64,000 nt of DNA from an uncultured Candidatus Binatia bacterium (GTDB taxonomy: Bacteria > Desulfobacterota > Binatia > UBA9968 > CAXXLF01), in assembly GCA_965218425.1 (NCBI GenBank), contig OZ244621.1:2279369-2343368 (forward strand), written 5' to 3'. The notes under the pieces were generated by a model, which made no database searches, was not told the origin of the DNA, and saw nothing but the letters and a program-made list of their open reading frames with translations. Positions 17,528 through 44,245 of the stretch are shown piece by piece. The position numbers were made by a program, and so were the translations under genes. Positions within the stretch are counted from its first letter, which is position 1; every line of letters begins with the position of its first letter.

Positions 17528-17636
17528 AAGAGATTAGCTGAGGGAGATCCCAAACCGAAGGCGACCTCGCTTACGTTGATTCCCTCCGGGCTATTTGCAA
17601 ACGGCAATAAGGCAAGCCTGCCCCCTCCAAGTCGTT

Positions 17637-20633
17637 TCAGGCCTCGGGCCGTTCGTACGTCAGACCGAACACCGTGTCCGTCATCCAACGCCGAAAAGAC
17701 TCGTTGTCCATGAACTGCTTGAAAAGCTCGGTGTCGTCCTTGAGCACGGCCGTCATCACGCGCGCCAATGCCTTATCGTGCTCGATACGGGCGTTCTGCT
17801 TGTCGGAGTTCCGCTTCGCGTTCCGGTAGGCCGTGTCCGCCGCGACGCGATTCGGGATGTCCTCGGTGATCAGCCTGTGCACCCGGTCCGAGTCGGTCCA
17901 CCGGATATTCCCGAACATCTCGTTGAAGGTCTTGAGGATGTTCGAGAGGCGGTCGAGTTCGGGTTCAGGTTTACGGCCGCCGCCGCCGGCCGGCACCGGC
18001 CCGATCTCGGCTTCCTCGTCCGGCAGTCGGACCTGCATCGCCGCCTTCTTCTCGACCCGGTAGCTGTCCATGTCGATGGACTCAAGGATGCCTCTGGACA
18101 GATCCTCTTCCACGGGCGCGGGGAGCTTCGGCACGAGGAAGTTCAGGAAGATGGAGAGCCTCTCCCACTCGGCGTTCGTGTAGGGCAGGATAGCGGCGAG
18201 GAAGTCGTACGCGCGCCCGAACGCCTTGGCCTTGCCCTTGAAGTCCACCTGCCCGTCCTCGTCGAGCTGCTCCCTGTAATGCGCAACGCAGGCGTCGAGG
18301 ATGGGGTCGAGCCGGTCGCGGTCGGCCCCACCGAGGTAGAGCGTCACGAGCCGGTCGATCTCCGCGTCGGCATAGACCTGGTAGCCGTCGAGGGCGGCCT
18401 TGAGGTCGTGCAGCTTGTTGGGATCGGTCTCCTCGCTCAGGATCGTCGTCCGGTAGTAGTCGGCGAACGCCGCTTGGATGGTGTTGGCATCGTTCATGAA
18501 GTCGAGGACGAACACGTCGTGTTTCTGCGGGTGCGCCCGGTTGAGACGCGACAGCGTCTGGACCGCCTTGATCCCGGACAGGACCTTGTCCACGTACATC
18601 GTGTGCAACAGCGGCTCGTCGTACCCGGTCTGGAACTTGTCGGCGCAAATGAGGAACCGATACGGGTCCTGCCGGATCTCGTCGGCGATCCGCCCGGGCG
18701 GGAAGCCGTTGAGGGACGCCTCACTGACCTTACCCCCGCCATACTCGTGCTCGCCCGAGAAGGCCACGATGGCCTGATACGGGCTCCTGCGCTCCAGGAG
18801 GTACTGCCGGATCGCGTGGTAATACTGGACCGCGCGCTCGATGCCGCCCGTCACCACCATCGCGCGGGCCTTGCCGCCGATCTTGTGGAGCGCCAGCACC
18901 TGTTCGTGGAAGTGGTCCACCATGATCTCGGCCTTGAGCCGGACGGCATGGTCGTGGCTCTCGACGTAGCGGCGCAGCTTCTTGCGGGCGCGCTTGGTGT
19001 CGAACTCGGGATCACCCTCGATCTTCTTGACGAGCTTGTAGTAGCTCTCGACCGGCGTGTAGCGCCCGAGCACGTCCAGGATGAAGCCCTCCTGGATCGC
19101 CTGCTTCATGGTGTAGCCGTGGAACGGTCGGCGCCTGGTCTTCCCGCCCGCGTCGTACGCTTCGCCGAAGGTCTCCAGCGTCTTGTTCTTGGGCGTGGCG
19201 GTGAAGGCGAAGTAGCTCGCGTTCGTGAGGAGCTTCCGCGCGTCCATGATGCGGTTGATCATGTCCTCGGCGGTCTCGTCCTCCTCCTCGGCGCCCGCCT
19301 CGGAGAGCGCCATGTTGAGCGCTGCCGAGGTCCTGCCGCCCTGGCTGGAATGCGCCTCGTCGATGATGATGGCGAAGCGCCGGCCCCGCTGCTCGTTCCC
19401 GATCTCTTCGAGGATGAACGGGAACTTCTGCACCGTCGAGATGATGATCTTCTTGCCGCTCTCGATAAACGCGCGGAGGTCGCCCGAGCGTTCGGCGTGA
19501 CCGACGGTGGCCCCGACCTGGGCGAACTGCTTGACCGTGTCGCGGATCTGCTTGTCGAGGATGCGCCGGTCGGTTACCACGATGATGGAGTCGAACGCCT
19601 CCGCGCCGTCTTTCCTGAGCCCGATCAACTGGTGGGCGAGCCAGGCGATGGAGTTGGACTTCCCGCTGCCGGCCGAGTGCTCGATGAGATACCGTTTCCC
19701 TGCGTCGTGCCGGCCGACGTCCGCCAAGAGGTTCCGCACCACGTCGAGCTGGTGGTAGCGCGGCCAGATCTGCACCGCACTCCTCTTGCCCGTCTTCTCA
19801 TCCTTGGCCTCGACGACCTGCGCATAGTTCTCCAGGATGTCGGTCAGCCCGTTGCGGGTAAGCAGGCGCTTCCAGAGGTAGTCGGTCTTGAGGCCGTTCG
19901 GGTTGGGCGGATTGCCCGCGCCGTCGTTCCAGCCCAGGTTGAAGGGCAGGAACCACGAACCCTTGCCCTTGAGGTGCGTGCAGAACCGCACCTCGTGGTC
20001 GTCCACCGCGAAGTGCGCCACGCAGCGGCCAAACTCGAAGAGCTTCTCGCGCGGGTCGCGGTCGCGTTTGTATTGCTGGACGGCGTCCTCGACAGTCTGC
20101 TTGGTGAGGCTGTTCTTCAGCTCGAAGGTGGCTACCGGCAGGCCGTTGATGAACAGGCCCAGGTCGAGAGCGAGCTGCGTCTCGTCGCGGCTGTAGCGGA
20201 GCTGGCGCGTGACCGAGAAGCGGTTCTGGGCGTAGCGTTCAGCGGCGAGGGGGTTGCCGGGAGACGGCGCGCCGTAGAAGAGTTCGGCGTGATGCGGCCC
20301 GTCCTTGACCCCCTTGCGGAGCACGTCGATGACGCCGCGCTTGCCGACCTCGCCTTGAAGACGCGCCAGGAACTTGCGCCGCGTCGGGCCGTCCTCTTCC
20401 AGGGCGAGCACCTCGGACGCCTTCGGTTGCGTCTCCCGCAGGAACTCCGAGAGCTGGACCAGGTCCACGCAATACTCCCGGTCGTAGTCGTTCGGGTTGC
20501 CGCAGATCCAGCCGGCGCCATAGGCGGCCGGACGCTCGCGCACCACGCCCGCTTGCGCCGGATCGCAGGGGGCTCCCGTCAGAGCCGCGCAGATGAGGCT
20601 TTCAAGTCCCTTCTCGCCGGTGTCGGTGGTCAC
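17637..20633 (-). CDS. hsdR: type I restriction-modification system endonuclease subunit R (HsdR)
   Basis: 998 aa; N-terminal endonuclease region, helicase motif I (HSAGSGKSNSIAW), DEAH box (IIDEAHSSQ), motif VI region; full length for the family. Confidence 0.9.
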   Translation of the reverse strand: MTTDTGEKGLESLICAALTGAPCDPAQAGVVRERPAAYGAGWICGNPNDYDREYCVDLVQLSEFLRETQPKASEVLALEEDGPTRRKFLARLQGEVGKRGVIDVLRKGVKDGPHHAELFYGAPSPGNPLAAERYAQNRFSVTRQLRYSRDETQLALDLGLFINGLPVATFELKNSLTKQTVEDAVQQYKRDRDPREKLFEFGRCVAHFAVDDHEVRFCTHLKGKGSWFLPFNLGWNDGAGNPPNPNGLKTDYLWKRLLTRNGLTDILENYAQVVEAKDEKTGKRSAVQIWPRYHQLDVVRNLLADVGRHDAGKRYLIEHSAGSGKSNSIAWLAHQLIGLRKDGAEAFDSIIVVTDRRILDKQIRDTVKQFAQVGATVGHAERSGDLRAFIESGKKIIISTVQKFPFILEEIGNEQRGRRFAIIIDEAHSSQGGRTSAALNMALSEAGAEEEDETAEDMINRIMDARKLLTNASYFAFTATPKNKTLETFGEAYDAGGKTRRRPFHGYTMKQAIQEGFILDVLGRYTPVESYYKLVKKIEGDPEFDTKRARKKLRRYVESHDHAVRLKAEIMVDHFHEQVLALHKIGGKARAMVVTGGIERAVQYYHAIRQYLLERRSPYQAIVAFSGEHEYGGGKVSEASLNGFPPGRIADEIRQDPYRFLICADKFQTGYDEPLLHTMYVDKVLSGIKAVQTLSRLNRAHPQKHDVFVLDFMNDANTIQAAFADYYRTTILSEETDPNKLHDLKAALDGYQVYADAEIDRLVTLYLGGADRDRLDPILDACVAHYREQLDEDGQVDFKGKAKAFGRAYDFLAAILPYTNAEWERLSIFLNFLVPKLPAPVEEDLSRGILESIDMDSYRVEKKAAMQVRLPDEEAEIGPVPAGGGGRKPEPELDRLSNILKTFNEMFGNIRWTDSDRVHRLITEDIPNRVAADTAYRNAKRNSDKQNARIEHDKALARVMTAVLKDDTELFKQFMDNESFRRWMTDTVFGLTYERPEA

Positions 20634-20651
20634 GCTATCCCTCTTCCATCT

Positions 20652-20969
20652 TCAGATCGGGACCTCTCTCAGTTCACCGGGGCGTATTTCGTCAAGGACA
20701 GTGCGATTCTCTTCTATCCGCGGCTGGATATAGGGCCATGCCGTGGACAGCAGGACGACAATCGCCAGTCGCCTATCTGTGAGATTCCGCTGGTATCGCA
20801 TATTCTGGTCAGTGGTGATGAGGACTTCGTAGCCTTCCTGCTCGGCCTCCTCAACCAAGTCTCCATTTCCGAGTCCTGACTATCCTTGCTCCGCTGCCGT
20901 ATCCACCGAGTGTCCGTGCAGATGCCCTCGAAGCGGCTTAGGCGTTCCCTGGTCGAATAGAATCTTCAC
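20652..20969 (-). pseudogene. DUF5615-family (PIN-like, toxin-like) gene with premature in-frame TAG
   Basis: Minus-strand translation from a GTG overlapping the DUF433 stop: (M)KILFDQGTPKPLRGHLHGHSVDTAAEQG-TAG-SGLGNGDLVEEAEQEGYEVLITTDQNMRYQRNLTDRRLAIVVL... matches DUF5615. The TAG at 20880-20882 falls where family members carry a conserved Trp (TGG). The supplied ORF track lists the distal part as '+', but the + strand there encodes only the antisense read-through of hsdR. Confidence 0.65.
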
Positions 20970-21193
20970 GGTTCTACGGAAACTTTGAGGGACTTTGCCG
21001 CGTGTTCGAGAACGGCTCTGACCTTCCATTCCTCCACGCCCTCGAACCAATCCAGGAACTGTTCTATCGTGGCGCCGCTCTCAAGGTTCTCGAAGAGGGC
21101 AGATACGGGCACTCTGGTTCCGGTGAACACCCAGGCTCCACTAAGCCTGCCGGGTACGCTTTCGACTGCCGGGCACTTTCCCCAGTCCGTCAT
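20966..21193 (-). CDS. DUF433-family protein (antitoxin-like partner of DUF5615)
   Basis: MTDWGKCPAVESVPGRLSGAWVFTGTRVPVSALFENLESGATIEQFLDWFEGV is a typical DUF433 sequence; the gene is immediately upstream of, and translationally coupled to, the DUF5615 gene. Confidence 0.75.
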   Translation of the reverse strand: MTDWGKCPAVESVPGRLSGAWVFTGTRVPVSALFENLESGATIEQFLDWFEGVEEWKVRAVLEHAAKSLKVSVEP

Positions 21194-21996
21194 ACCGTCA
21201 CCTCGGCAGGAGGGTGTAGGTTTCTATCTACACGGTCTGTCAATGGGCCGTCTTCCTCTGACGAGTCCTGCTCGTCCGCCTCATCGGGCAACCGTGCCGC
21301 CGCTTCGCGAACGTCGAGCTTGCCGGTGACCACGTCGGCGATGAGGCGGGTGCGGTACTCGCGGAGGAGGTTGATTTGGTGCTGGGCGCGGTCAATAGCA
21401 ACGTCGATAATGGCGGCAGCTTTGTCGAGATACGTAACGATGGCGGCTTGTTCGGGGAGGGGGGGTAAAGCAAGGATGAGAGCTTTGACCATGCCCGAGT
21501 TAAGCCCGCGCATGATCGAACCCTTCCCCGCAACCGCGATCTGCTTCTTCACATAGGTGGACTCGTCAATAAGCCGCGAGGCGAATCTGACATTGATGCT
21601 AACGTCAGTTCGCAATCGAAGGAGATGCGAATCCATGATACCCATGGGGGCATCGTCAGGAACATAGGTACACCTTCCGGTTGTTCCCATCATCGTCACC
21701 AACAGATCATTTGGGAGCACTTTGCAAGCGGATAGTTCGTTGAATTTCTCTTGGTCGACGAATTTCGTGCCGCGATCAAAGTCCCTGGCAATGACGTTGG
21801 CCTGGCCGTACACTTTGTAACCCGATGGTGACATCTGTTCGAGCTTCAGTTGGCTGCCGAAAGGGCCGATCTTAATCCCGTCATAAGTGCGGAGCTTTCG
21901 GCGAAGTGCGTCAACCTCCCAATGCACTGGAACCTCGCCCAGCCATGGCACGCCAGAGTCCTTCATCGCGGGGTAGGGCTTGAGATCGGCGATCAT
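21190..21996 (-). CDS. hsdS: type I R-M specificity subunit HsdS, half-size (single target-recognition domain plus conserved C-terminal coiled-coil)
   Basis: N-terminal conserved MKDSGVPWLGEVPVHWEV, one TRD, C-terminal LLREYRTRLIADVVTGKLDVREAAARLP. ~268 aa (full-size HsdS ~400-470). Confidence 0.7.
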   Translation of the reverse strand: MIADLKPYPAMKDSGVPWLGEVPVHWEVDALRRKLRTYDGIKIGPFGSQLKLEQMSPSGYKVYGQANVIARDFDRGTKFVDQEKFNELSACKVLPNDLLVTMMGTTGRCTYVPDDAPMGIMDSHLLRLRTDVSINVRFASRLIDESTYVKKQIAVAGKGSIMRGLNSGMVKALILALPPLPEQAAIVTYLDKAAAIIDVAIDRAQHQINLLREYRTRLIADVVTGKLDVREAAARLPDEADEQDSSEEDGPLTDRVDRNLHPPAEVTV

Positions 21997-22127
21997 GCTT
22001 CAGCCTCTCTGTTACCCATTTGCTTTTCGAAGGCTTGGCGCACGAGGCCCATCACGTAAGGCGGTTCGTCCGGCGTGCTCAAGACTACCTCCACGTCGCC
22101 GTTTCCACTGTGACCGATTCCCGTCAT
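21993..22127 (-). CDS. small hypothetical ORF (44 aa) overlapping the hsdS start (ATGA)
   Basis: MTGIGHSGNGDVEVVLSTPDEPPYVMGLVRQAFEKQMGNREAEA; coupling geometry only; could be a remnant of the upstream truncated gene. Confidence 0.2.
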   Translation of the reverse strand: MTGIGHSGNGDVEVVLSTPDEPPYVMGLVRQAFEKQMGNREAEA

Positions 22128-22321
22128 ATCCCGAGCCTGACCCCTGGGACTGGTTGCATTTCATTGCGCCTGCATCGCGCTGCGTAGGCATTGAAGTTCT
22201 CCGGAAAAGCGCGTTTGAACTGAAGCGCAATTCCGCGCCCCATGACCCCGACGCAGTTGACGGTATTGACCAGAGCTTCGGCTTCTTCGGCGAGGATGTC
22301 GCCGGTCTTGTATTCGATCAT
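22124..22321 (-). pseudogene. darG: DarG-like macrodomain (ADP-ribosyl glycohydrolase antitoxin) N-terminal fragment
   Basis: MIEYKTGDILAEEAEALVNTVNCVGVMGRGIALQFKRAFPENFNAYAARCRRNEM matches the N-terminal macrodomain of DarG antitoxins. ORF stops after 65 aa (full length ~340 aa); no DarT toxin gene nearby. Confidence 0.6.
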
Positions 22322-22454
22322 GGCCTTTCCCCTTCCTCGTCAGTAATACCACTCTTTCTTGATTTCAACAGGAGATCGTTCTCGGGAATGATAGAAGGCA
22401 GACGGTCTACATGGACGATGTGGTAGATCTTGGGATCGGCGGGTACCGGCATGG

Positions 22455-22891
22455 TCAGTACTCGGCATCCGACAGTTCGACATCTTGGTCAATGGGTTCG
22501 CGCCATTCCTCAAACTCATCGACTGGCTCCGGTCCCTCGACCTCGTCCGGGAGTCTTGCCGCCGCCTCGCGCACATCGAGCTTGCCGGTGACAATATCGG
22601 CGATGAGTCGGGTGCGGTATTCGCGGAGAAGGGCAAGTTCGCCGTGCGAGAGGTCAATAGCACGCCGTGCGTCTGCCGACTCTTTGCCGACGACCTCGAC
22701 GATAGTGCGCTGCTCCTCCTGTGGCGGACACAGCAACTTGATACGAAGGAACTCCTCCGGGTACATCCTCAGTCGTGACGAGCGGATACCCGTTGACCGG
22801 CGGATGTACTCGCTCTTATATGACGCCGTACGCAGCAGGAGATCAGCGTACTCGGCAAGCAGTCTCGAAGAGCGGTGTGGTTGGTAGACAG
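22455..22891 (-). pseudogene. hsdS: hsdS C-terminal portion, separated from its N-terminal portion by an IS3-family insertion
   Basis: Translation from the IS boundary reads ...YQPHRSSRLLAEYADLLL...LLREYRTRLIADIVTGKLDVREAAARLPDE (HsdS TRD2 plus C-terminal repeat). Joining 24160.. to ..22887 restores a continuous reading ...GIVSPSYAV-YQPHRS... Confidence 0.8.
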
Positions 22892-24159
22892 TGACCTTGC
22901 CCCCTAAAACGAGTCCAGGTGAAATGTTAGGGATTTTGATTTTAGGAAGGAGGCAAGGATGGCAAGAAAGCGATTTACGGCCGAGCAGATTATCCTCAAG
23001 CTGCGTGAGGCGGAGGTGAGCTTGGCCCAAGGGAAGGCGGTGGGCCAGGTGTGCAAGCAGGTGGGGGTAACCGTGCAGACCTACTACCGGTGGAGGAAGG
23101 AATATGGAGGCCTGAAGATGGATCAGGCCAAGAGGCTCAAGGCCTTGGACAAGGAGAATGCGCGGTTGAAGAAGCTGGTGGCGGATCTATCGCTGGACAA
23201 CCAGATCCTGAAGGAAGTGTCCTCGGGAAACTTCTAGGCCCGGCGAAGAGGAGACGAGCGGTGATATGGGCCAGAGAAAGATTGGGACCTGATCGAGTCT
23301 CCGAACGCCGGGCTTGCCAAGTGTTGGGACAGCCGCGATCGACGCAACGAAGAGTCCGAGAGATCCCGGAAGAGGAAGCAAGACTAGTGGCTCGGATGAT
23401 GGAGCTGGCCAGCGAATACGGGCGATACGGCTACCGGAGGATTACGGCCATGCTGCGTGGGGAGGGGTGGAAGGTCAACCACAAGCGAGTGGAGAGGCTC
23501 TGGAGGCAGGAAGGGCTGAAAGTCCTCAGCCGTCAGCCTAAGCGAGGGAGGCTCCGGTTGACTGATGGCTCCTGCATTCGCCTGAGACCGGCGCATCGAA
23601 ACCATGTGTGGAGTTATGACTTCGTGCACGAGCGAACCGAAGACGGTCGGGCCTTTCGGCTGTTGAGCATCCTGGATGAATACACCCGGGAGTGCTTGGC
23701 GATTGATGTGGCCAGACGGATGAATCACCGGGATGTGCTGGAACGGTTAGCGGAGCTATTCGTGGAACGGGGCGTGCCGCAGTCCCTTCGGTCCGACAAT
23801 GGCCCCGAGTTTACGGCTCAGGCTATCCGGGACTGGCTCAAGGCCATTGGTGTCAGGACACTCTACATCGAGCCTGGCAGTCCTTGGGAGAATGGCTACG
23901 TGGAGAGTTTTAACGGAAAACTCAGGGATGAGCTGCTCAACCGGGAGGTGTTTGAAACCCTGAGGGAAGCTCAGGTGCTGATCGAAAGATGGAGAAGAGA
24001 GTATAACCAGCGGCGGCCTCACAGCGCCCTGGGCTATCGTTCTCCGGCACCGGAGGCCTTTCTGCCCAGAGCGCAGGCTGGGAATTCATCCCCATGGGCT
24101 GGACTCCAGATAATTCCGGCTCTAACTTAAAGGGTGGTACCACTCCTGGGGGCAGGTCA
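22892..24159 (+). mobile_element. IS3-family insertion sequence (orfA HTH plus orfB DDE integrase), 1268 bp, imperfect terminal IRs TGACCTTGCCCCC / GGGGGCAGGTCA, 4-bp target-site duplication ACAG
   Basis: orfA 22959..23237 ([20 protein letters not shown]...[18 protein letters not shown]); overlapping orfB 23051..24130 in the -1 frame with the DDE core (…[10 protein letters not shown]…DNGPEFT…[20 protein letters not shown]…). TSD ACAG at 22888-22891 and 24160-24163. Confidence 0.85.
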
Positions 24160-25154
24160 ACAGCATACGAGGGGCTGACTATTCCAGTCTGCCTAGCAAC
24201 GCCCAGAGCGCCCATCCAAGCCCACATCGTATTGATGACCAGATCGCCGGGCCTACACAACTTGTGCCCGACGTTCGACACCGCCATAAACATCGTGATG
24301 TTCTTCTCACTTCGCGGCGTTACTCCGGTAATGTGAGACACGGACAGCAATTCCTCTGAGCCGGTCTCAGAGCGCTCATCCGTTTCCCGGAAGCACCATT
24401 TCGCTGGCCTTATTTCCCAATGCGCCGGCACCTTTCCCAGCCACTCAACGCCGGAGTCCTTGTAGGCCGGGTAGGGCTGGCCGGTGCAGATGTCCACTTG
24501 GCCCGTGACGGCGCGGTGGATGATGGCCTGCTTCTGCTCCTCCAGCAACTTGATCAGCTTCTGCTTGGCGCGGATGTAGCGCCGGATGCGCCGGTCGGCG
24601 TGGTCGAGGAAGCGGACGATGGCAGCCTGTTCGGGGAGGGGGGGGATAACTGTTCTAATCTCTCGGATTTCACTTTCACTAATAGCGGGTACTGGCCCTG
24701 GTTTCGCAATTGTTGCTAAATCAAGGTGCTCCAGCAGCAACAAGACGAACTGCGGGTTGCCACGACGGACGATGCAGCCCATCAGATTGTTGTCTATACA
24801 GCATGGACGCTCGACCACTCGCCTCTTGTTGGTCAATAGTGCCCCGCCAACTTTAGGGAACACGATTGTTCTAGACGGGAAAATGTTTGCGCCAAGTCTT
24901 GATGCGGTACTACGAGCAACGGAGTTATTCCAACTCCCCATCACTCTGTCGTTATTGGGAAGGTTCATATCGGAGACTTTGAAAAACGGCAGTTCCAGGT
25001 TCTGTTGGCCTTGTTCCAAAATTGGAAATCCAGCTCCGCTACTGAAATGCCCTAACCGCTTCAAGGCTATCACTTCCCAATGCGACGGCACATCACCGAG
25101 CCACTCGACACCGGAGGGCTTGTAGGCGGGGTGAGAGTGGATTCTGGCAGTCAT
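24160..25154 (-). pseudogene. hsdS: hsdS N-terminal portion (TRD1 plus central conserved region plus start of TRD2), interrupted by the IS3 element
   Basis: MTARIHSHPAYKPSGVEWLGDVPSHWEV...PLPEQAAIVRFLD...KQKLIKLLEEQKQAIIHRAVTGQVD...YKDSGVEWLGKVPAHWEI...GIVSPSYAV then runs into IS sequence. Confidence 0.8.
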
Positions 25155-27743
25155 GTGAGACCTGCACTTTGCACCGGGACACGAACGGCCAGCCGGTCTC
25201 TCACTTCCTGGTAGATTGGAATGTTGATTCCTTCGGCAACTTCCAGCGTCACGGCCAAGCCGAACCGTATCGGAGCAGGTATATCACTGGCATCGGCACG
25301 ACAGTTGACTTTGATCGCAATGGTGTCCCCGTCCTGGAAGGCCACCGCCCTAGCACCTTCAAGAACCTCGTGCTGAACCGTGCTTCTTTGGACCGCAAAG
25401 CCGTCGGCGCAAACGCGGTCGGGTGCTATATCGTATTTGGGATTGAACCAAAGGTGAGCGATCCGATAGTTCTGACTGGTACTGCTAACCGGAGAGATCC
25501 ATGCGAGCGTAATTGTCAAACGCCTGCGCTCGTTCACAGCTGACAGGCTGGGTGGCAGTGGAAGGATGAACTCAGCTCCTTCGCCATCGCTGAGTTCGCC
25601 AAACCCCAACACCGTGACGCGTTGCTCCGTGCCAGCCATGACCTTCGCGAGATCGACCGAGCCGTATCCCAAGAACCGTCCGAGGTACTCCTTGAGGACT
25701 CGGCTATTTTGGGCGTTCTTCAGGGCGGACTCGTATCGGAATCTAGCATCTGCCCAGTCTGCGCTGTGCACAAGAAGTGCTTTGATCAAAACCACGTCGA
25801 AGTCCGTGGGCAGGGGCGTGTCTAGTTGCCGGCGGAGTTGCTCGATCAGTTCATAAAGAAAGTATGCACCGCGTGCAGCAAGAGCCGCGGCATCGCTTGT
25901 GCCTCTTGTGTGCATTTTTCGGTTCAACTGCCCCGCGTTACCGGGAGTAGCAACGCAGTGTCCAGGAGGGCTAGTAAACCCGTTGGCCTGCAGAGTGGCC
26001 TTGGTATGAGGTAGTTCCCATCTTCTCGCCCAGGAACTGCCTTCCGCCTGGCAGGAAAACATCGGGCTTAATAGCGCGCCGGTATCCTGGTCCATGAGCG
26101 CTGATCACGTTCGGTAAATCTGTCCCTACAAAAGGGTCGATCAGGCGGTTCAGCGAGGGGGATGACGCATCTGCATGTACTGCCCCAATTGTGAGGCCGT
26201 TCAGCGTCTCGGCAGGTGATAACAGCCGCCGGTTACGCGTGTCCATCGCAAGCGCCTTTACCACAGCTCGTTCCCGTTCTTCGGCTGTTAGGGTGCTTAG
26301 GTCAGACCTTGGAAGGTCCAACTCAATATCCTGGAGATGATTGCCTGCACTGACTATGAACAGGATGTTGTACTTCCATGAAAGCCAGTCCAGGAGTCGC
26401 GCCCAGGAACTCATCTCACGGATAAGAGGACGCGTTTGATCGCATATGGACAGATTGATAATGCGAACGCTGAGTGCTGCTGGTGGCTCACCGTTTTCGG
26501 TCTCGTATAATCTCCGCACCGACCTATGGATCAGGTCTATTGGCAGCACATTCGTGGGTATGGCTTCCTCGATGAATCGCCCGGTAGAGTCGCGTCGGGG
26601 TTGCATGACCGGTCTCGTGTACAGCGGTTTTCCTGTCGCATCGCCGTGTTCATTGAGGTCTCCATGACAGATAAGTGATGTCATTGCGGTGCCATGCACA
26701 CGCTCGTGTGCCTGGTAGGCGTTCTCGTAACCATCCGGATCGTCGATGATCAACCGTCCGTCGAGCAGTTGGTGTCCCGTCAGAGGCATGCCGTCGAACA
26801 AGGCCACGACGGGGTCTCCCTGGGGCAGCTCTGGCTTCGGCTCATCCTGAAGAGAATCCGTCTCCTCAGAATCTTCGGACATACGAATCGCGCACTGCCC
26901 GACCGGACGCAGGTGCATTATGTCTTCGCACTGAAGCAACCTAACCTCCTGGAAGGCATGGAGTCGGTCGATGATATCCTGGACTCGGGTTCGGTGTAGT
27001 CGTCCCAGAACGGCATGGTAAGCAATGTCAGGAATGACACATTGCTGGATCACTTCACCGTTCAAGGACGCGATAATTTCGCGAATATTGGATTCAGCCT
27101 GTTCTGGGCGTCTGTCATCCGCCCTGAACCATAACTCGATTTCGAAAGGAACGTTTTCTTGTCCGTACTGTAGGCGATCCTGCCAATCCTCCATGAGGCC
27201 GGTCTCCCGAATCCGATCCTCTGCGTCCCACGGCCGTATGGTATGGAGGCATTCGAATGCGTGTTTCCATGGAGCCAAGCCCCTGGCAAACTTCGTGTTA
27301 CGATTCTTCCGCCACTCTCGAAATAAGTTATACAATTCCTGTAACGCCTGCAGGTCAGTCATTACAAGGAAGAGTTGGCCTTTCAGTTGCTTGTCCGGAC
27401 TCTTCTCATCCTCGAAGCCGTAGTCGGGAGAAATGTCGTCGAGTTCGTATTCAGCTAACCACTCCAACCCCGACACCTTTTCCACCGCTCGGATAAAGTT
27501 CTGTATTGAGCCAATGGTTTCAATCACCAGGACCTGTTCAGGTTGAAGGCCAAGAGGATGATCCTGAAGGGCAAGGCGTTTTTTTTCCATGTTCTCTTGA
27601 AGGCGTTGGAACTGCGGCTCCAGCCGTTCTGCCTGTCGTGATGCGTCCGGGATACTAACTTTCCCTCCGCCTCCACCACGTTTAGCGCGTTCAGTGCGGG
27701 CCGGTTCAGAAAAGACAAGAAGCGGAAGGTTGGTCTCGGCCAT
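25151..27743 (-). pseudogene. ietS: IetS-like S8 (subtilisin-family) serine peptidase, catalytic residues split across two overlapping frames
   Basis: ORF 25971..27743 carries the Asp (VALFDGMP), His (HGTAMTSL) and Asn (SAGN) motifs. ORF 25151..26095, in another frame and overlapping by ~125 nt, carries the Ser motif (GTSDAAALA). A single original gene of ~860 aa is implied, split by a frameshift or by a sequencing error. Confidence 0.6.
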
Positions 27744-27745
27744 GA

Positions 27746-28741
27746 TTAACTGCTTGCCTCTCTACTACTGGACTCCTTGAGTGTGAACCGCTTCTTCCAA
27801 TGGTACAGGTGCTGTTCAACCATATGCTTAATGTTCCCACCCGGCTGTTCCAATACGATTTTTCGGAGGATGTCAGTCCCGAAGTCCTCGACTTCCGCGA
27901 AGCTCAAGCCCCGCATTCGCTGTCCGAGACTACGCGGGGATAGCCCGAGCGGATGTCCGGTCCGCTTCTCGAACCGATTGAACCACTCCTCAATCTGACT
28001 TTGAGTGGGCTGCGGGAGCTCCAATCGAATCTGGAAGCGGCGCCATACGGCACGGTCGAGAAGTTCAGGATGGTTGCTGGCCGTCACGACCACTACGTAG
28101 CTGGGAAGGGCATCGATCTGGAGCAGCAGCGAACTCACGACTCGCTTAATCTCTCCGGTTTCGTGCAGGTCACCGCGTTCCTTTCCCACCGAGTCGAACT
28201 CGTCGAAGAACAGCACACAGTGGCGAGATCTGGCGTGCTCGAAGACTTGGCTTATCCTTTGCGCAGTCTCGCCCAGGTAGCTGCCGATGACTGCTTCATA
28301 GCGGACTACCATGAATGGAACGCTCAAGGCGTCGGCAAGTGCCTCCGCCAGAGTGGTCTTGCCATTCCCTGGAGGCCCGGCAAGCAGTATGCGGTTGCGC
28401 GGTTCGAGGTTGTACGACCGAAGCAGATCGGCGCGGTGCTGTTCGGTCACCAGTTCGCGAATGGTTTCCTCAGCATCGGCGGATAGTATAAGATCCTGCA
28501 GGCGGCGTACCGGGACAACATCTGCCACGAGAGGACCTGCCACCGAATGGGACGACCGTGACGCTGGCTGCGCATAGCGACCGTTCTCGATCTGAAGCTG
28601 CGCAAGCAACCGATCGGCTAGAATGGTGTGGTTCTTCGCACGCTCGTCGGCAGCCAGTGCCTCGACGGTCTTCCGGACTTGGCTCTCGTCGCCTTGTCTA
28701 CTGGCCTTTATCAGGCTCAGGATCAAGTCTGATCGTGCCAT
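27746..28741 (-). CDS. ietA: IetA-like AAA+ ATPase
   Basis: 331 aa; Walker A LLAGPPGNGKTTLA, Walker B VLFFDEFD, sensor region VVVTASNHPELLDRAVWRRF; directly upstream of and abutting the S8 peptidase gene. Confidence 0.65.
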   Translation of the reverse strand: MARSDLILSLIKASRQGDESQVRKTVEALAADERAKNHTILADRLLAQLQIENGRYAQPASRSSHSVAGPLVADVVPVRRLQDLILSADAEETIRELVTEQHRADLLRSYNLEPRNRILLAGPPGNGKTTLAEALADALSVPFMVVRYEAVIGSYLGETAQRISQVFEHARSRHCVLFFDEFDSVGKERGDLHETGEIKRVVSSLLLQIDALPSYVVVVTASNHPELLDRAVWRRFQIRLELPQPTQSQIEEWFNRFEKRTGHPLGLSPRSLGQRMRGLSFAEVEDFGTDILRKIVLEQPGGNIKHMVEQHLYHWKKRFTLKESSSREASS

Positions 28742-28743
28742 GG

Positions 28744-30804
28744 TTATCTCCTGTTACTCTCGGCAGGACGGTTAGACGTTTCGGCTGCCATAATCTTCTG
28801 TAGCAACCCCTCGGTTTCCTTCTCCACTGCCAGAATATCCGCCCGGATCTCTTCCAGCGTGCGCAGCGGCTGCGGCTTGTAGAAGTAGCGGGTGAAGCTG
28901 ATCTCGTAGCCGGTCTTGACGCTCGCCGGGTCGTACCAGGCGTCAGGGGCATAGGGCAGCACCTCGCGGCGAAGGAATGCTTCAATTCCGCCTTCCTCCA
29001 ACAGCGGCGCCTGCTCGGTGTCCCGCAGGTCGGTGTCCGGCTCGTACTCGACGACAGCCGGCTTGCCTTTGACGGTCGCCTCGAACAGGCCGCGCAGGGG
29101 GTCGGGCTCGACGCCCTTCCTGTGGATCTTCTTGATGACGGGCGGCGCGCTCTCGTCCCTCTCGGCGGTCTCCTTGAGCGCCTTGATCTCCTTCGGCGCG
29201 TAGACGCGGTCGGGGTCTATCCCCGTGAGCCGGAGGGGCCGCTCGACCGTCACCTTCCGATACCCGAAGGCGGCGTTCGGGAAGATCTTCGACTGCTCGG
29301 TCTCCTCGAAGGCCAGGAACGTGTCGCAGATGCGCTGGATGTCCTCGTCGGACAGCTCGCAGTTCTTCTTGCCGAGGTTCTTCCGGAGCGGCTTGTACCA
29401 GGGCGCGGCGTCGATGAGCTGGACCTTGCCTTGGCGATGGGCGGGTTTCCGGTTGGTCAGCACCCAGATGTAGGTGGCGATGCCGGTGTTGTAGAACATG
29501 TTGAGCGGCAGCGCGACGATCGCCTCCAGCCAGTCGTTTTCGATGATTCAGCGGCGGATGTTGCTCTCCCCCTGACCGGCGTCTCCGGTAAAGAGCGACG
29601 AGCCGTTGTGGACCTCGGCGATGCGGCTTCCCAGAGGGGCGCCGTGCTTCATCTTCGAGAGCATGTTCGCCAGGAACAGCATCTGACCGTCGCTGGAGCG
29701 GGTGATGAGCGAGTACTCGGCATCGCCGCCGTGTTCGATCAGAAAGCGCCGGTCCTTGATACCCTCCTTGCCGCCCAGGCGCTCCAGGTCGCTCTTCCAG
29801 CTCTTGCCGTAGGGCGGGTTGGAGAGCATGAAGTCGAACTCGCGGGACGGAAAGGCGTCGTTGGAGAGCGTCGAGTGTTCCGGCCCCCCGATGATGTTGT
29901 CGGCGGCTTCCCCCTCGCCCTTGAGGAGGAGGTCAGCCTTGGCGATGGCGTAGGTCTCGGCGTTGATCTCCTGGCCGTAGAGATGGGTGGCCGCCTGCTT
30001 GCCGCGCTGCCCGGCAATCTGCGTCAACGCCTCCTCGGCCACCGTCAACATGCCTCCGGTGCCGCAGGCGCCGTCGTATACCAGGTAGGTCCCGGAGTCG
30101 ATCCGGTCGGCGACAGGCAGGAGGACCAGCTTCGCCATGAGCTGCACGGCATCGCGGGGGGTCCAGTGCTCGCCGGCCTCCTCGTTGTTCTCCTCGTTGA
30201 AGCGGCGGACCAGCTCCTCGAAGACCGTGCCCATCGCGTGGTTATCGAGGCCGGGGTGTTTGATCGACCCGTCGCCGTGGAGGACCGGGTGCGGACTCAG
30301 GTTCACGTCCGGCGAAAGGAACTTCTCGATCAGCGTGCCGAGGGCGTCGGCCTTGGACAGGCGGGGGATCTGGTTCCGAAACTCGAACTTCTCCAGGATG
30401 TCCTGCACGTTCGGCGAGAAGCCGTCGAGATACGCCTCGAAGTCGGCCTTGAGCTGCTGTTGGCCGGCGCGGGCCTTGAGGTCGGGCAGCGTGAACTTCG
30501 ATGTGTTGTGGAACGCCTGGCCGGCGGCCTGACGCAGTGCCTGGTCCTGGTGGATGATCTTCGCCTGGTCGAGCGAGGCCTTCATCTCCAGCACGGCCGG
30601 CTTGCTCGGCTCCAGGAGGGAGTCGAGCCGCCGCAGCACGGTCATGGGCAAGATCACATCCCGATACTTGCCGCGGACGTAGAGGTCTCGCAGCACGTCA
30701 TCCGCGATGCCCCAGATGAAGTTGGCGATCCAGCCGAGTTGAGATTGGTCCACGGGAATCCTGGAAAGGCTCTGCCGGGATGTCCTTTTCGGCCGCCCCG
30801 GCAC
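28744..30804 (-). pseudogene. hsdM: type I R-M N6-adenine DNA methyltransferase HsdM with in-frame TGA at a conserved Trp position
   Basis: ORF 29548..30804 contains the HsdM N-domain and catalytic NPPYG, and stops at TGA (29548-29550) in ...FTGDAGQGESNIRR-TGA-IIENDWLEAIVALP... The frame then continues into ORF 28744..29499 (MFYNTGIATYIWVLTNRK...). Confidence 0.75.
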
Positions 30805-31386
30805 GTATTATTTAAGGTAACCGATCCACGGCCGCGATACAATGTATTGTATTGGGCCGCCACATCTTGCACTCTTCGGGTCTTCGCGTGCTCAATGAGA
30901 TGAGCCAACCCCCCGGGTGCAATGTCTTCGCAATAAGCTTCCCTGAAGGCTGTGGTCGGGACAATCGCTGACTTGTTCAGCGCCTCGATACCGTAGCAGC
31001 GTCCCCTCCGGTCACTACCGCTTTTTTGGTGTAGTTCGATCAATCGAAATGAACGAAACACGTTATCTACTGCACAAGACGTGACCCAGTGTTGCGCTCG
31101 GCGACGTCGTAGGCTCAGAATGAGGCGCCGCCCACCCCGATTTAACGGCCCTGAAAGGGCCGTTTTTCGACCCCTAAATGCCCCGGAAAATCCGGCCGGT
31201 TTCCGGCCCATTTCCAATTATTTCCGTCCGCCTACGCTCAATCGGTCAATCCCCCGGCGTGCTCTTCTACGTTTCATGATGCGATAGTAGGCGCCAGGGC
31301 ACTCGATCCGCAGTGGACGTGACATGCGTGGGACTCACTACGGCCAAGTTATCGCTATTCGTCCACCGATTATCACCCGGTCTCAC

Positions 31387-32178
31387 TTACTTGACAGTAT
31401 CGAACCCGGCCATGTCCTTCGCCCGCGAGGGCTCGATCCGTTCGACTCCGTCGTCATCGACGGTGAAAAAAGACCTCTCCTCGTACATGCAGCCGGACGG
31501 GCAGTCGCCCCAAGCCCTACGGAAGATGACATGCCAGGTCCCGCGCGACTTCGTTGCTTCGATATCGGAACCATCTCCAAGCAGCACATCGGGCTCCGCG
31601 TAGCTGACGCACTCCATCGCCTGGTAAGCCCTCCTCGCTGCGTCGATGTTCAGCGGTTCGTCGAAGTACATGGCGACCACACCGGTGGAGAAGAACGGCC
31701 GCACGGCCCACAGACCTAGTTTTGCATTGAGGGCATCGAACTCCGCGCGTGCGGTGCGGAGCGGGACGGAACCGCGTTCATCGTCAAGGAGACCGGACAC
31801 GGCTTCCAACAGCTTCGGCTCCAGACCGAGAAGAAGCGTCCCGAGCTTATGATCCTCCCGTGCGGAGATCTCCGCCATCGCCGGATACGCGTCTCGGATC
31901 CGCGCCAGAACCCGCCCGATCTCGCGGCCGAGCTCGCGTCGCCGACTTGCGTCCAACAACAAGTCATCGCTTTCTCTTCGCAGGATGCGATCGGCCAGAA
32001 CGGCAGCTTCCGTGGAGGCCGACGGTTGCCAGGGGTCCGCGCGGGCGAAGATCCGGACTTCGGCCTCTGCCGATGCTTCCGGGGGCGATGCGCCGCAGCC
32101 TGCCAGGGCCAGGGCGCAGCACGCCGCAAACCCGAAGCAAATCCACTCGGTCGGCCCTTTCAGACGTGACAGATCCAT
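31387..32178 (-). CDS. hypothetical lipoprotein
   Basis: Signal peptide plus lipobox (…CCALALAGCGAS…); no family recognised. Confidence 0.4.
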   Translation of the reverse strand: MDLSRLKGPTEWICFGFAACCALALAGCGASPPEASAEAEVRIFARADPWQPSASTEAAVLADRILRRESDDLLLDASRRRELGREIGRVLARIRDAYPAMAEISAREDHKLGTLLLGLEPKLLEAVSGLLDDERGSVPLRTARAEFDALNAKLGLWAVRPFFSTGVVAMYFDEPLNIDAARRAYQAMECVSYAEPDVLLGDGSDIEATKSRGTWHVIFRRAWGDCPSGCMYEERSFFTVDDDGVERIEPSRAKDMAGFDTVK

Positions 32179-32969
32179 CTCGAACGAAACACTCCTTAGC
32201 CGGCTGCCGACAATAAAGTATTTTAATTTATATAGCAACGGCATGTTCCCAGGACGCAAAGGCAAGTGGTCGGCTATTTCGATAATGCTGAGATGACACT
32301 AAATGACGAGCCGGATTCAAATTGAACTCACAGGCGTGAAGTATATTGAGCGGCTCGACCTGAAAATCGTCGAACAGAATCTGCCGATAGCTATCAACAA
32401 TTAGATCGCCCCGCCTTGGTTCACGCGAAGGGAACGGAATGACCGGGCATATTTCGTCTGGCCGCAGTTTTTCGCGGATCAAGGACAAGCGTTCGGCCAG
32501 TCTTGAACAGCTTTGTACCGCTATATTGTCTCCAGATAATAACGTTCCGTAACGGCTATATAAAGCTTTTAATCATGTGGAGGTATCCGGAGTGCAGGAT
32601 TACCCGTCTTCAGTTGTCCGGCAAAATAACCGACTGAAGCCTAACATTCGTTGCTACCTGTAGAGGTCAACACAGGTATTCGAACAGAAAACAAAATGAA
32701 ATTGGCATTGAAGTCAGGTATGATTTTTCGTATTTCGAACCTGCCACAAAATAGAAAGCCGCACGAAAATTGGTTAGCCCCGCCGATGGAATCGGTATGG
32801 GGCATAACCCGCCCGGTACTGAGGACCGAGGTGCACGTTCGGTTCCCGGCTCAACTCCGCCGCCCGCTCCAGGTCCCCCGCCTGGTGCGCTTCCTTCCGT
32901 CGATCCACGGGCTTTCGCCGGGCGCCGTCGCTGCCTTGCTCCGATCGACCGGCCCGCAGGGTCACAGAC

Positions 32970-37570: not shown

Positions 37571-38044
37571 TCAAATAGTGACACAAGGAACCGATTCCCG
37601 GTCAACCGGACGTTCAGCTTCAGCCAAGTTTCGAAGCGGCGTTGCCAAGGAGACTTCTCGCCTCCTCGAAGGATGTAATGCGAAGAGGACCGAGCACGCC
37701 GGCGTCTCGGCGGCCTCCGTTTGGCAGAAGAAAAACCGCCGGCTATCGAACTCCTCCGGGTCCGTCCAGTGCTCCAACAGTCGCTTGGTAATTCCCGTAA
37801 CGCCCGGATACCCGGCTTCGCGCCATGCCCGCACGCACGGCCGAATCCGGTTGACCAGAGGGATCTCGATGAAATGGCCCGGGTCATCGAATGATCGGGA
37901 GCCCTCCGAGGCAATGACGTATCCGGCCGGGCGACGACCTTCTGCAAGATCGAACAGATGCGTCGTCCGATCGTAACTCCAGTGCCGGGCCGGCTCCTCG
38001 TAGGGTGAGTTGACGATCAGCTGGTCAATAGTTGTTCGCGCCAT
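37571..38044 (-). pseudogene. N-terminal fragment of a type III restriction Res-subunit / DEAD-box helicase family protein
   Basis: MARTTIDQLIVNSPYEEPARHWSYDRTTHLFDLAEGRRPAGYVIASEGSRSFDDPGHFIEIPLVNRIRPCVRAWREAGYPGVTGITKRLLEHWTDPEE...RRFFFCQTEAAET matches the characteristic N-terminus of res-like helicases; ORF only 157 aa. Confidence 0.55.
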
Positions 38045-38046
38045 TA

Positions 38047-44168: not shown

Positions 44169-44245
44169 GGCCGCTCCCTTTTTCTGATACAGAAGACCAT
44201 CGGATTAAATGGATGCCTAATCTCAGGATCCAATGGTTCGATCGT

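Follow-up and report, generated by a model that had tools for sequence, protein, structure and literature searches.

Stepwise pseudogenisation of a composite defence island built on a type I restriction-modification operon

Introduction

Defence systems turn over fast, and their loss is usually deduced by comparing which genomes have them and which do not. In type I restriction-modification (R-M) systems, restriction and modification both depend on the M2S core, and half-size HsdS subunits, truncated naturally or by experiment, are reported from deletion studies of EcoDXXI and EcoR124I to function as dimers.

DarTG modules inside type I operons have precedents (PMC5179494; PMC12255303); in the RRDM island of enteropathogenic E. 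coli, DarTG2 is embedded between hsdS and hsdR of the type I operon (PMC12255303). Pairs of PIN and COG2442 (DUF433) proteins are described as VapBC-type toxin-antitoxin modules, such as VapBC10 of Synechocystis (PMC3834315; PMC2701414), and our literature search found no paper treating DUF433 together with DUF5615. The literature searched also gave no statement on IetAS (PADLOC PDLC04232 and PDLC04233) embedded in a type I operon; its co-localisation with RM III in E. coli was noted.

Here we describe a locus within a 64,000-nucleotide stretch of DNA from an uncultured Candidatus Binatia bacterium, the whole of which is referred to below as the window. The locus is a real, stepwise pseudogenisation of a composite defence island of an already known kind: a horizontally mobile type I R-M operon with further anti-phage cassettes, disabled by seven or more separate mutations, most of them verified. 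It resembles the RRDM island in that the order hsdM-hsdS-darT-darG-hsdR recurs in five related loci (L015, L013, L021, L063, and L075) and the darT and darG remnants of the window occupy exactly the position of DarTG2 in RRDM. Unlike RRDM, however, the window has darT and darG only as remnants in an apparently inactivated island, which adds IetAS, a GmrSD-like remnant, a half-size hsdS, and a DUF433/PIN pair, with no RptR-like regulator or M48 peptidase identified at the locus. Intermediate states of defence-island loss are preserved here, most of them verified in two samples.

Organization of the Island

The features of the island are listed in Table 1. The original prediction had read this region as a graveyard of defence genes, and that reading was borne out: all five lesions that it listed were found in place on the minus strand, and the genes that it took to be intact (hsdR, ietA, DUF433, and the half-size hsdS) proved to be intact ORFs by Pfam, PADLOC, and alignment with relatives.

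Table 1. Features of the defence island, in window coordinates
Feature	Position	Strand	Remarks
hsdR, type I restriction subunit	17637..20633	-	998 aa, intact ORF
PIN-like DUF5615 gene, putative toxin	20652..20968	-	TAG at 20880-20882; GTG start overlaps DUF433 stop
DUF433 (COG2442) gene, putative antitoxin	20966..21193	-	75 aa, intact; Pfam DUF433 2-55/56 (47 bits)
Half-size hsdS	21190..21996	-	268 aa; one target-recognition domain and C-terminal conserved helix
GmrSD-like (DUF262/DUF1524) type IV restriction gene remnant	21996..22148	-	last 51 codons; called ORF 21993-22127
darG remnant	22124..22321	-	57 homologous codons (22321->22151) and 8 codons into next remnant
darT remnant	22318..22452	-	44 codons; PADLOC DarT 5-35/196
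Full-size hsdS, 3' part	22455..22891	-	contains target-site duplication copy 22888-22891
IS3-family insertion sequence	22892..24159	+	1268 bp; orfA 22959-23237; orfB end 24130
Full-size hsdS, 5' part	24160..25154	-	Pfam Methylase_S; contains duplication copy 24160-24163
ietS (S8 protease of IetAS)	25151..27743	-	+1 frameshift, extra C at 26010/26011
ietA (AAA+ ATPase of IetAS)	27746..28741	-	331 aa, intact
hsdM	28744..30804	-	TGA at 29548-29550; probable true start 30753

The island was compared with 80 related loci, taken from a set of 589+, and with contigs L086 and L100, which were assembled independently from a second sample (ERZ25067264). Among the 80 loci, hsdM and hsdR are spaced 0.8-8.6 kb apart, and the cargo includes full-length DarT in 13, DarG in 14, GmrSD-like proteins in 5 (with 9 more partial), DUF433 in 9, and IetA in 2. 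Judged by these sequences, embedded cassettes are routine in this type I family. The cassettes of the relatives appear to be interchangeable: IetAS lies between hsdM and hsdS, DarTG after hsdS, and the DUF433/PIN-like pair before hsdR, and a GmrSD-like type IV enzyme is a further one.

In a GC3 plot of the window, hsdM and hsdR lie at ~0.90 vs ~0.66 for the cargo; a GC3 frame plot across the window was uninformative for locating frameshifts, the GC3 contrast of host genes being too small. The island boundary is placed at hsdM, because a tblastx search with the 3.8 kb upstream of hsdM gave zero matches against the 80 related loci; this search also found no RptR-like gene there. Seven of the 11 gene units in the island are disrupted, vs ~2 of ~40 flank genes checked (Fisher p = 9e-5). 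Outside the island, both samples also have an enoyl-CoA hydratase gene with a frameshift. With this frameshift and a multi-copy insertion sequence outside, decay is enriched within the island without being confined to it, and the pseudogenes and insertion sequence copies elsewhere in the genome indicate that part of the decay is genome-wide. A look-up of the permease at 45849-46868 gave no match.

The Type I Genes

The hsdM gene is interrupted by an in-frame TGA (context ...GESNIRR*IIENDWLEA...) at a position where Trp is found in 57/57 relatives with readable sequence, as had been proposed from the window sequence, and the same TGA is present in L100. It splits the gene into products of 401/418 aa and 251 aa, between which the Pfam domains HsdM_N and N6_Mtase are divided, so that no complete HsdM capable of entering the M2S core is encoded. 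Intact HsdM proteins of relatives have 660-662 aa and are at most 91% identical to that of the window; no intact allele of the window hsdM at 99% identity or above was found. Reassignment of TGA to Trp was considered and rejected, since TGA is the normal stop in six of the eight island genes. Rfam, at its gathering thresholds, has no matches in the window, and hence no recognized recoding or SECIS element lies at the hsdM TGA.

The TGA is common to two structurally different haplotypes, that of the window and that of L100, which diverge at 29229; the hsdM of L100 additionally lacks the 3' part. A chimeric join at 29229 in the window contig is formally possible, but the window hsdM is collinear with all relatives across this position, and it is L100 that carries the deletion. 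The sole SNV between the two in 14.6 kb causes R107P in HsdM, at a column conserved to at least 98%, and would fit relaxed constraint following the stop.

The full-size hsdS is split by an IS3-family element, as originally described: excising the element in silico yields an uninterrupted HsdS of 475 aa, 56% identical to that of L015. The element encodes an OrfA with a helix-turn-helix and an overlapping OrfB with a DDE rve domain (Pfam HTH_Tnp_1, HTH_21, rve, and rve_3), has the terminal repeats TGACCTTGCCCCC / TGACCTGCCCCC, and is flanked by a 4-bp target-site duplication, ACAG (22888-91 and 24160-63). Its ends were read by eye, the inverted-repeat finder having given no match for them. Ten records from two samples contain copies that are 99.9-100% identical across exactly 1268 bp, at eight or more distinct sites and mostly with 4-bp duplications; the element is active and multi-copy. 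With two overlapping ORFs, TG...CA ends, short duplications, and multiple identical copies, it has nothing unusual for the IS3 family, although no site for a programmed -1 frameshift was identified; the 4-bp duplication and the TGACCTGCCCC ends may point to the IS407 group.

The half-size HsdS is complete at both its N and C termini (C-terminal type ...LLREYRTRLIADVVTGKLDVREAA...) and matches PADLOC Specificity_I. Over residues 1-230, it shares 79% identity with the first half of the full-size HsdS of L014, and a half-size hsdS of 273 aa occupies the same position in L007. It resembles the half-size subunits of EcoDXXI and EcoR124I in having one target-recognition domain and one conserved helix between complete termini, but differs in that the full-size hsdS and the hsdM that accompany this copy, whose function is predicted, are both disrupted. 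Two target-recognition domains and two helices occur together only in the interrupted full-size HsdS; the half-size copy is intact as an ORF. A phase-variable hsdS shufflon was rejected, because a search for inverted repeats between the hsdS copies found none.

HsdR combines an N-terminal PD-(D/E)xK nuclease region with an SF2 motor (Pfam HSDR_N, SWI2_SNF2, ResIII, and T1R_D3-like), and its translation shows the motifs GSGKS, DEAH, and D...ELK. It aligns over its full length with the 80 relatives at 74-85% identity and deviates at one column conserved to at least 98% (Q318E), the median for the relatives being 2.

The Embedded Cassettes

In ietS, the extra C divides the gene into ORFs of 590 and 314 aa, the first with the motifs ALFDG, HGT, and SAGN and the second with GTSDAAA. 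The catalytic Asp/His/Asn and Ser therefore fall in different frames, as the original prediction had noted, and the gene is a pseudogenised member of IetAS, its Asp/His/Ser triad not being joined in one polypeptide. At this site, the window reads GGGAACTACCTCATACC, and the closely related loci L101/P0242 and L102 read GGGAACTACTCATACC; the allele of L101/P0242 is intact, with 857 aa and 96% identity to the window. Removal of one base gives an IetS of 863 aa that scores 1060 bits with the PADLOC IetS model (positions 1-851/855). IetA (PADLOC IetA, 485 bits, positions 1-326/330; Pfam AAA) is 71% identical to the proteins of L056 and L066. Thus, both window proteins match IetAS end to end once the frameshift is removed, and the window differs from a typical IetAS in that frameshift. 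The pair is embedded between hsdM and hsdS in the window, L056, L066, L101, and L102.

DarTG, which in intact form comprises a DarT of ~213 aa and a DarG of ~350 aa, is represented by remnants of a member. The original prediction had darG truncated with no darT; the truncation held, with 57 homologous codons among the 65 of the ORF, but a darT remnant of 44 codons does exist (22452->22318). In it, the N-terminal ~21-30 codons are joined out of frame to the last ~10-16 (22372->22343), with an internal loss of ~530-545 nt and DNA breakpoints at 22389 and 22372 relative to L015; it ends in ..VEIKKEWYY*, and the intact relatives of 213 aa end in ..WYY. The darG remnant (Pfam Macro 1-38/118; PADLOC DarG 1-57/329) is 95% identical to the 353-aa DarG of L015, and its codon 57 is fused directly, at ~22149-22151, to a GmrSD-like remnant, so that the locus joins two cassette sets.

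This 51-codon remnant, which was absent from the earlier lesion list, shares 78-80% identity with the C-terminal ends of proteins of ~710 aa in L007 and L008. The family assignment is based on the full-length homologue of L008, which matches PADLOC Orf5, HEC-06, and mREase_IV; the remnant itself lies beyond both the N-terminal DUF262 domain (DGQQR) and the DUF1524 nuclease domain of a GmrSD-like protein.

A small PIN-like gene comes after DUF433, its start overlapping the DUF433 stop (GTGA), as in PIN-COG2442 pairs of the VapBC type. In the window, however, the PIN-like partner has a premature TAG (...AAEQG*SGLGNG...), and even with the Trp restored it scores 22.5 bits against Pfam DUF5615, just below the 23.8-bit cutoff. 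The place of the pair also differs, directly upstream of hsdR in a type I operon and kept in nine relatives, whose DUF433 homologues are 64-82% identical. The claim that the TAG replaces a conserved Trp proved correct: GW stands at this point in 9/9 DUF433-adjacent homologues of related loci, and the same TAG occurs in L086.

Software that annotates defence systems automatically would credit this locus with type I R-M, IetAS, and possibly DarTG, none of which is likely functional.

Real Mutations or Assembly Errors

Whether these lesions reflect inactivation or assembly error, a choice left open by the original prediction, is resolved in favour of real mutations for four of the five by the second-sample contigs; the ietS frameshift rests on one visible assembly, next to two closely related alleles without the extra C. 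L086 corresponds to window positions 24780-7637 with 3 SNVs and 0 indels and carries the DUF5615 TAG, the insertion sequence with its site and duplication unchanged, and the darT/darG/GmrSD junctions, in agreement with the earlier argument that the insertion and the darG truncation cannot be assembly errors. L100 corresponds to 43821-29229 with 1 SNV and 0 indels and carries the hsdM TGA. Across samples, 39,373 shared bases show 9 SNVs and 0 indels, and the window-specific SNVs that a third sample could polarise belong without exception to the G:C>A:T class, as do both nonsense changes. The suggested comparison with relatives for intact alleles succeeded for ietS (L101/P0242, 96%) but not for hsdM (best 91%). 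The additional C was seen only in the window contig and one 4.46-Mb contig that is not counted as independent, and exact look-ups of IetA and of the 401-aa HsdM and 590-aa IetS fragments returned only the window's own contig and one similar place.

The alternative, that the TGA, the TAG, and the +1 C are consensus errors of a low-coverage long-read metagenome assembly and that the genes are really intact, appears improbable. It draws on the name of the window contig (ctg256646_8x_l), which suggests ~8x coverage, on homopolymer indels in 2x contigs of the same project, on the nature of the ietS change (a C-to-CC length change absent in L101 and L102), and on hsdM, which has no intact allele of 99% identity or more to argue either way. 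However, the TGA and the TAG recur in independent contigs of the other sample at 11-12x, as does the enoyl-CoA hydratase frameshift outside the island; the 95% upper bound derived from 0 indels in 39,373 shared bases predicts <0.2 indels in ietS, and CC is no long homopolymer. With both stops reproduced, no indels, and no long homopolymer, assembly error survives as an explanation for ietS only. In-frame stops in long-read metagenome assemblies thus deserve a cross-sample check before dismissal as errors.

Proposed History of the Island

We put the probability at about 85% that the locus is one minus-strand operon on a widely transferred hsdM...hsdS...hsdR frame, dead via independent real mutations. 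The older events would be deletions that gutted darT and joined darG codon 57 to the last 51 GmrSD-like codons, fusing a cassette set of the IetAS/DarTG type to one of the GmrSD/DUF433 type. The G-to-A nonsense changes at Trp codons of hsdM and the PIN-like gene would have come later, as would the insertion of the active IS3-family element into the full-size hsdS, and the +1 C in ietS would be the most recent event. Indeed, the remnants of darT, darG, and GmrSD are already present in L102, an IS-free haplotype in which the ietS +C is absent. This gives a relative order, from the DarTG/GmrSD-like deletions through the hsdM/PIN-like nonsense changes and the hsdS insertion to the ietS frameshift; the lesions themselves, their reality across two samples, their ancestral states, and their excess over the flanks are shown, and the order and the reason for the decay (relaxed or negative selection) are inferred.

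The hsdM stop would abolish restriction and modification together, since each requires the M2S core, avoiding the lethal state of restriction without methylation and leaving hsdR as an ORF that is intact but without function. Within the two-gene modules, it would be the effector or toxin (darT, the PIN-like gene, and ietS) that is damaged each time, the other partner surviving or having outlasted it, and for pairs resembling toxin-antitoxin modules, toxin-first would be the only viable order of loss. The locus may thus illustrate two rules of safe loss, by which a type I system dies via M or S, not R, and toxins or effectors go before their partners; this effector-first pattern is based on three or four modules only.

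The stop in hsdM could also be taken as an expression damper in an attenuated, weakly active system, in which low levels of wild-type HsdM pair with a dimer of the half-size HsdS and with HsdR. Among the stops, UGA is the leakiest, with tRNA-Trp misreading it, so that traces of full-length HsdM able to work with the half-size HsdS are conceivable; no nonsense change other than TGG>TGA gives the wild-type protein on read-through. This explanation also gains from the lack of decay signs in hsdR and the half-size hsdS, from the half-size hsdS at the same position in L007, and from the persistence of the TGA across the structural divergence of two haplotypes. It is nevertheless highly improbable: no recoding signal was found, Rfam being empty for the window; the TGA is the ordinary stop of most island genes; the radical R107P change struck a conserved HsdM column after the stop; the hsdM of L100 is also without its 3' part; and the TAG of the PIN-like gene would not be rescued by UGA read-through. 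A separate matter is whether selection against a toxic or costly island (autoimmunity), rather than neutral drift, drove the decay. The lesions strike the effector partners darT, PIN-like gene, and ietS as well as the M/S core, they are strongly enriched relative to the flanks, and hsdMSR or darTG2 cloned without their repressor in E. coli gave only inactivated clones (PMC12255303). Yet neutrality also predicts that the toxin is lost first, because losing the antitoxin first is lethal; accessory genes lose function faster than core genes anyway; and relatives carry scattered lesions as well: hsdM is frameshifted in L011, L026, and L030, hsdR has stops in L054 and L074, ietS has a stop in L056, and the PIN gene is frameshifted in L066. 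Selection of this kind is possible, though we lean against it; cost or toxicity as the cause is inferred, and neutral decay after the first hit fits the data equally.

With its predicted loss of function, the island is an ordinary case, though an unusually well documented one, of a bacterial immune locus that decays in situ. A more tentative and rather unlikely reading is that the conserved, GC3-rich hsdM and hsdR act as a recombination scaffold for the swapping of whole cassettes. The exchanged units may be IetAS, DarTG, GmrSD-like, Fic, PIN/DUF433, and alternative hsdS cassettes, with exchange points at the hsdM 3' end, the conserved helices of hsdS, and the hsdR 5' end. If so, the window, L100, and L102 would be snapshots of cassette exchange within one species, and the graveyard would partly be a by-product of integron-like turnover, not simple decay. 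Swapping of this kind may leave scars in the form of fused remnants and hsdM 3' stubs; stray hsdM 3' fragments occur in 6 of the 80 related loci.

Organization of the Island

The window is part of a 1.495-Mb contig (ENA ERZ25072670 ctg256646_8x_l) of a long-read metagenome assembly. HisF and UbiD belong to clusters (>=90% identity) containing proteins named 'Candidatus Binatia bacterium' and 'Deltaproteobacteria bacterium', so the host is probably Binatia-like. Its type I restriction-modification island is encoded entirely on the minus strand, in the order hsdM, ietA, ietS, hsdS, remnants, and hsdR (table below). The original prediction described this locus as a defence-island graveyard with five lesions, and that interpretation is supported, with the lesions confirmed and two corrections made. 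The island represents a known kind of phenomenon, here well documented, rather than a new type of system.

Features of the island and its flanks in window coordinates
Feature	Position	Strand	Remark
hsdM	30753/30804 to 28744	minus	in-frame TGA
ietA	28741 to 27746	minus	
ietS	27743 to 25151	minus	frameshifted
full-size hsdS	25154 to 22455	minus	IS inside at 22892-24159
darT remnant	22452 to 22318	minus	
darG remnant	22321 to 22124	minus	
GmrSD-like gene remnant	22148 to 21996	minus	51 codons
half-size hsdS	21996 to 21190	minus	
DUF433 gene	21193 to 20966	minus	
PIN-like DUF5615 gene	20968 to 20652	minus	TAG at 20880-82
hsdR	20633 to 17637	minus	
three genes directly upstream of hsdM	31387-33821	minus	292/285, 63, and 283 aa
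HepT-like gene and adjoining gene	37571-38463	minus	second gene 157 aa
enoyl-CoA hydratase gene	43378-44170	minus	frameshift near 43900-43990
PolX-like ORF	53268-53774	minus	168 aa
DUF3179 gene	742-1908	minus	TGA at 1486-1488
glycine reductase cluster	7013-8317 and 9752-10090	minus	GrdB, GrdA, Gly_reductase

GC3 is ~0.90 in hsdR and hsdM, ~0.66 in the cargo between them (20652-28741; ietAS, hsdS, DUF433, and others), and 0.63-0.82 in host genes; the conserved hsdM/hsdR frame and the cargo differ in compositional history. The long plus-strand ORFs at 17595-20879 and 29122-30903 were rejected as genes: they are artefacts antisense to hsdR and hsdM, whose GC3 is very high.

Lesions in the Type I Genes

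The stop codon in hsdM, at 29548-50 (GESNIRR-stop-IIENDWLEA), does fall at a conserved Trp, which occupies this column in 57/57 related loci with readable sequence; intact HsdM relatives in the protein database have 660-662 aa, with identities of at most 91%. At columns conserved to at least 98%, HsdM otherwise deviates only by R107P and HsdR only by Q318E, the median for HsdR among 79 relatives being 2. Since R107P is also the sole SNV separating the window from L100, a second-sample contig, over 14.6 kb, it is later than the TGA shared by the two.

The full-size hsdS is split, as predicted, by an IS3-family element with a target-site duplication: the insertion measures 1268 bp, has the ends TGACCTTGCCCCC and TGACCTGCCCCC, and is flanked on either side by ACAG, and taking out the element and one ACAG restores a 475-aa HsdS without other defect. 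Copies 99.9-100% identical over exactly the same 1268 bp were found at at least eight other sites in both samples, mostly with 4-bp duplications; the element is active. IS1595-, IS256-, and other IS3-type transposase genes also lie near these copies (L089-L098, from the same genome in both samples), suggesting an IS-rich host genome. The half-size HsdS consists of the first recognition domain of a full-size HsdS like that of the related locus L014 (79% over 230 residues) plus a C-terminal helix, and a comparable 273-aa gene occupies the same place in L007. It may be functional in principle, yet has no HsdM to work with.

Lesions in the Cassettes

The catalytic residues of the protease IetS lie in two frames, with the Asp, His, and Asn motifs in a first ORF of 590 aa and GTSDAAA in a second of 314 aa, whereas ietS of the relatives L056 and L066 has a single frame across the shift point. 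Comparison with the 96.2% identical third-sample allele on L101 (P0242, 857 aa), which has GGGAACTACTCATACC in place of the window's GGGAACTACCTCATACC, places the lesion at one extra C at 26010/26011. Without one base, ietS encodes an 863-aa protein whose match to the PADLOC IetS model spans positions 1-851 of 855.

The toxin gene darT, originally thought to be missing, persists as a remnant retaining both ends of DarT—that is, ~21-30 codons from its start and ~10-16 codons from its end, the two parts being in different frames, with DNA breakpoints relative to the locus L015 at 22389 and 22372. Intact relatives have a DarT of 213 aa, ending in WYY, and a DarG of ~350 aa. The truncation of darG was borne out, its homology to L015 (95%) ending after codon 57, at 22151. 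Directly thereafter, a stretch starting at 22148 shows 78-80% identity to the final 51 residues of a ~710-aa GmrSD-like protein, a remnant absent from the original prediction. The intact protein, encoded between hsdM and hsdS in L007, L008, L052, L065, and L072, matches the PADLOC Orf5, HEC-06, and type IV restriction models. The remnant shows that a single illegitimate junction connects two cassette sets in this locus.

The DUF5615 gene starts with a GTG overlapping the DUF433 stop, and its TAG replaces, as expected, a conserved Trp: in relatives, each of the nine homologues that follow DUF433 has GW at this point. Among toxin-antitoxin modules, PIN-COG2442 pairs are a recognised VapBC type (PMC3834315, PMC2701414).

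Inactivation or Assembly Error

The original prediction had left a choice between genuine inactivation and assembly error. Exact-protein look-ups identified contigs from a second sample (ERZ25067264) covering 39,373 window bases with 9 SNVs and no indels in total. L086 (ctg791138_11x_l) corresponds to window 24780 to 7637, with three SNVs and no indel, and carries the IS at the identical site, the darT/darG/GmrSD junctions, the half-size hsdS, and the DUF5615 TAG; L100 (ctg835110_12x_l) corresponds to 43821 to 29229, with one SNV and no indel, and carries the hsdM TGA. With four of the five lesions recurring, assembly error is excluded for these. Fewer than 0.2 assembly indels are expected in ietS (95% upper bound). 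Among the lesions, only the extra C in ietS lacks visible independent support. The truncated 590-aa product is recorded from a 4.46-Mb contig as well. L102 (ERZ25067264 ctg554240_2x_l), a noisy 2x contig 99.5% identical across hsdM 3′-ietA-ietS, lacks both the extra C and the IS when aligned with window 29130-21474, although darT, darG, and the GmrSD-like gene are already reduced to remnants in it. The extra C is therefore probably the youngest mutation, a consensus error being the less likely alternative. The indels of L102 itself fall within homopolymers and resemble errors due to 2x coverage, and its hsdS has a different second recognition-domain segment.

L100 departs from collinearity at window 29229 (L100 14593 onward), inside hsdM, which is fused, with a change of frame, to an hsdM 3′ end differing from that of the window. 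Beyond it lie an N-terminal GmrSD fragment, an hsdS of 470 aa, and a second hsdR (87% nucleotide identity, called as 754 + 244 aa). Since no relative breaks collinearity with the window hsdM at 29229, L100 is the deleted version, and the difference reflects either polymorphism in structure or the presence of a second type I locus within one species.

The SNVs at 197, 540, 1793, 3536, 8650, 20031, and 20858 are almost all A/T in the window and G/C in other samples. Four of them can be polarised with the third-sample contig L084, and each proves to be a G:C>A:T change that arose in the lineage of the window, the same class as both Trp-to-stop mutations.

Flanking Genes as a Control

Pfam profile coverage of 30 further window ORFs, together with precomputed gene tables, served as a control. 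Disruption affects 7/11 island units and ~2 of ~40 outside (p = 9e-5); decay is concentrated in the island, but not unique there. The only clear frameshift among control ORFs is that in the enoyl-CoA hydratase gene, whose N-terminal ~85 residues lie in another frame; being also present in L100, it marks a real pseudogene outside the island. The PolX-like ORF is limited to helix-hairpin-helix domains from the N-terminus of a PolX-type polymerase; neither a polymerase nor a PHP part follows downstream, and the gene may be truncated. Two in-frame TGAs look like selenocysteine codons rather than lesions. That in the DUF3179 gene, splitting it into two ORFs (IAVTW-TGA-PLCYT) in three assemblies, resembles the first Cys of a CxxC motif; the other lies in GrdB (LTST-TGA-GTST), in a glycine reductase cluster implying that the host decodes some UGA codons as selenocysteine. 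Rfam reported no SECIS element at the gathering threshold.

Relatives and Probable Course of the Decay

An HsdR search yielded 589 related stretches, of which 80 loci with 74-85% identity were kept, from Acidobacteriota, Gemmatimonadota, Chloroflexota, Proteobacteria, Planctomycetota, and Firmicutes isolates; horizontal transfer of the hsdM/hsdR frame is widespread. The hsdM-to-hsdR spacing ranges from 0.8 to 8.6 kb (median 4.7 kb) and hsdS needs only ~1.4 kb, so most members carry cargo. Full-length DarT is present in 13 of the 80 loci, DarG in 14, the GmrSD-like gene in 5 (partial in 9), DUF433/PIN in 9, and IetAS in 2, as well as in L101 and L102. DarTG embedded in type I operons has already been published (PMC5179494; PMC12255303). 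Lesions recur among relatives, with hsdM frameshifts in L011, L026, and L030, hsdR stops in L054 (a Moorella mulderi isolate) and L074, an ietS stop in L056, and a PIN frameshift in L066.

Restriction by HsdR depends on the M2S core; an hsdM stop or hsdS insertion would therefore remove methylation and restriction together and be tolerated, with hsdR lingering as an unselected ORF until mutated. In the toxin-antitoxin-like modules, the genes presumably destroyed first are those of the toxins or effectors, namely darT, the PIN-like gene, and ietS, which would be the only viable order. This course of loss is inferred from type I and toxin-antitoxin knowledge, and may have been driven either by selection against cost or autoimmunity or by drift after a first inactivating hit.

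Cassettes are flanked by extra hsdM 3′ stubs in L003, L020, L039, L063, L070, L073, and L101. In L101 (1-2166), where ietS is intact, hsdM and ietA are separated by a Fic gene, itself called in two parts, and after it by a ~265-nt duplicate of the hsdM 3′ end that looks like a recombination scar moving with the IetAS cassette. In the window, neither Pfam nor PADLOC gives a match for the three genes immediately upstream of hsdM, which also lack counterparts in the 80 related loci. The HepT-like gene and its neighbor, ~7 kb from the island, look like a HEPN/MNT-type toxin-antitoxin pair.
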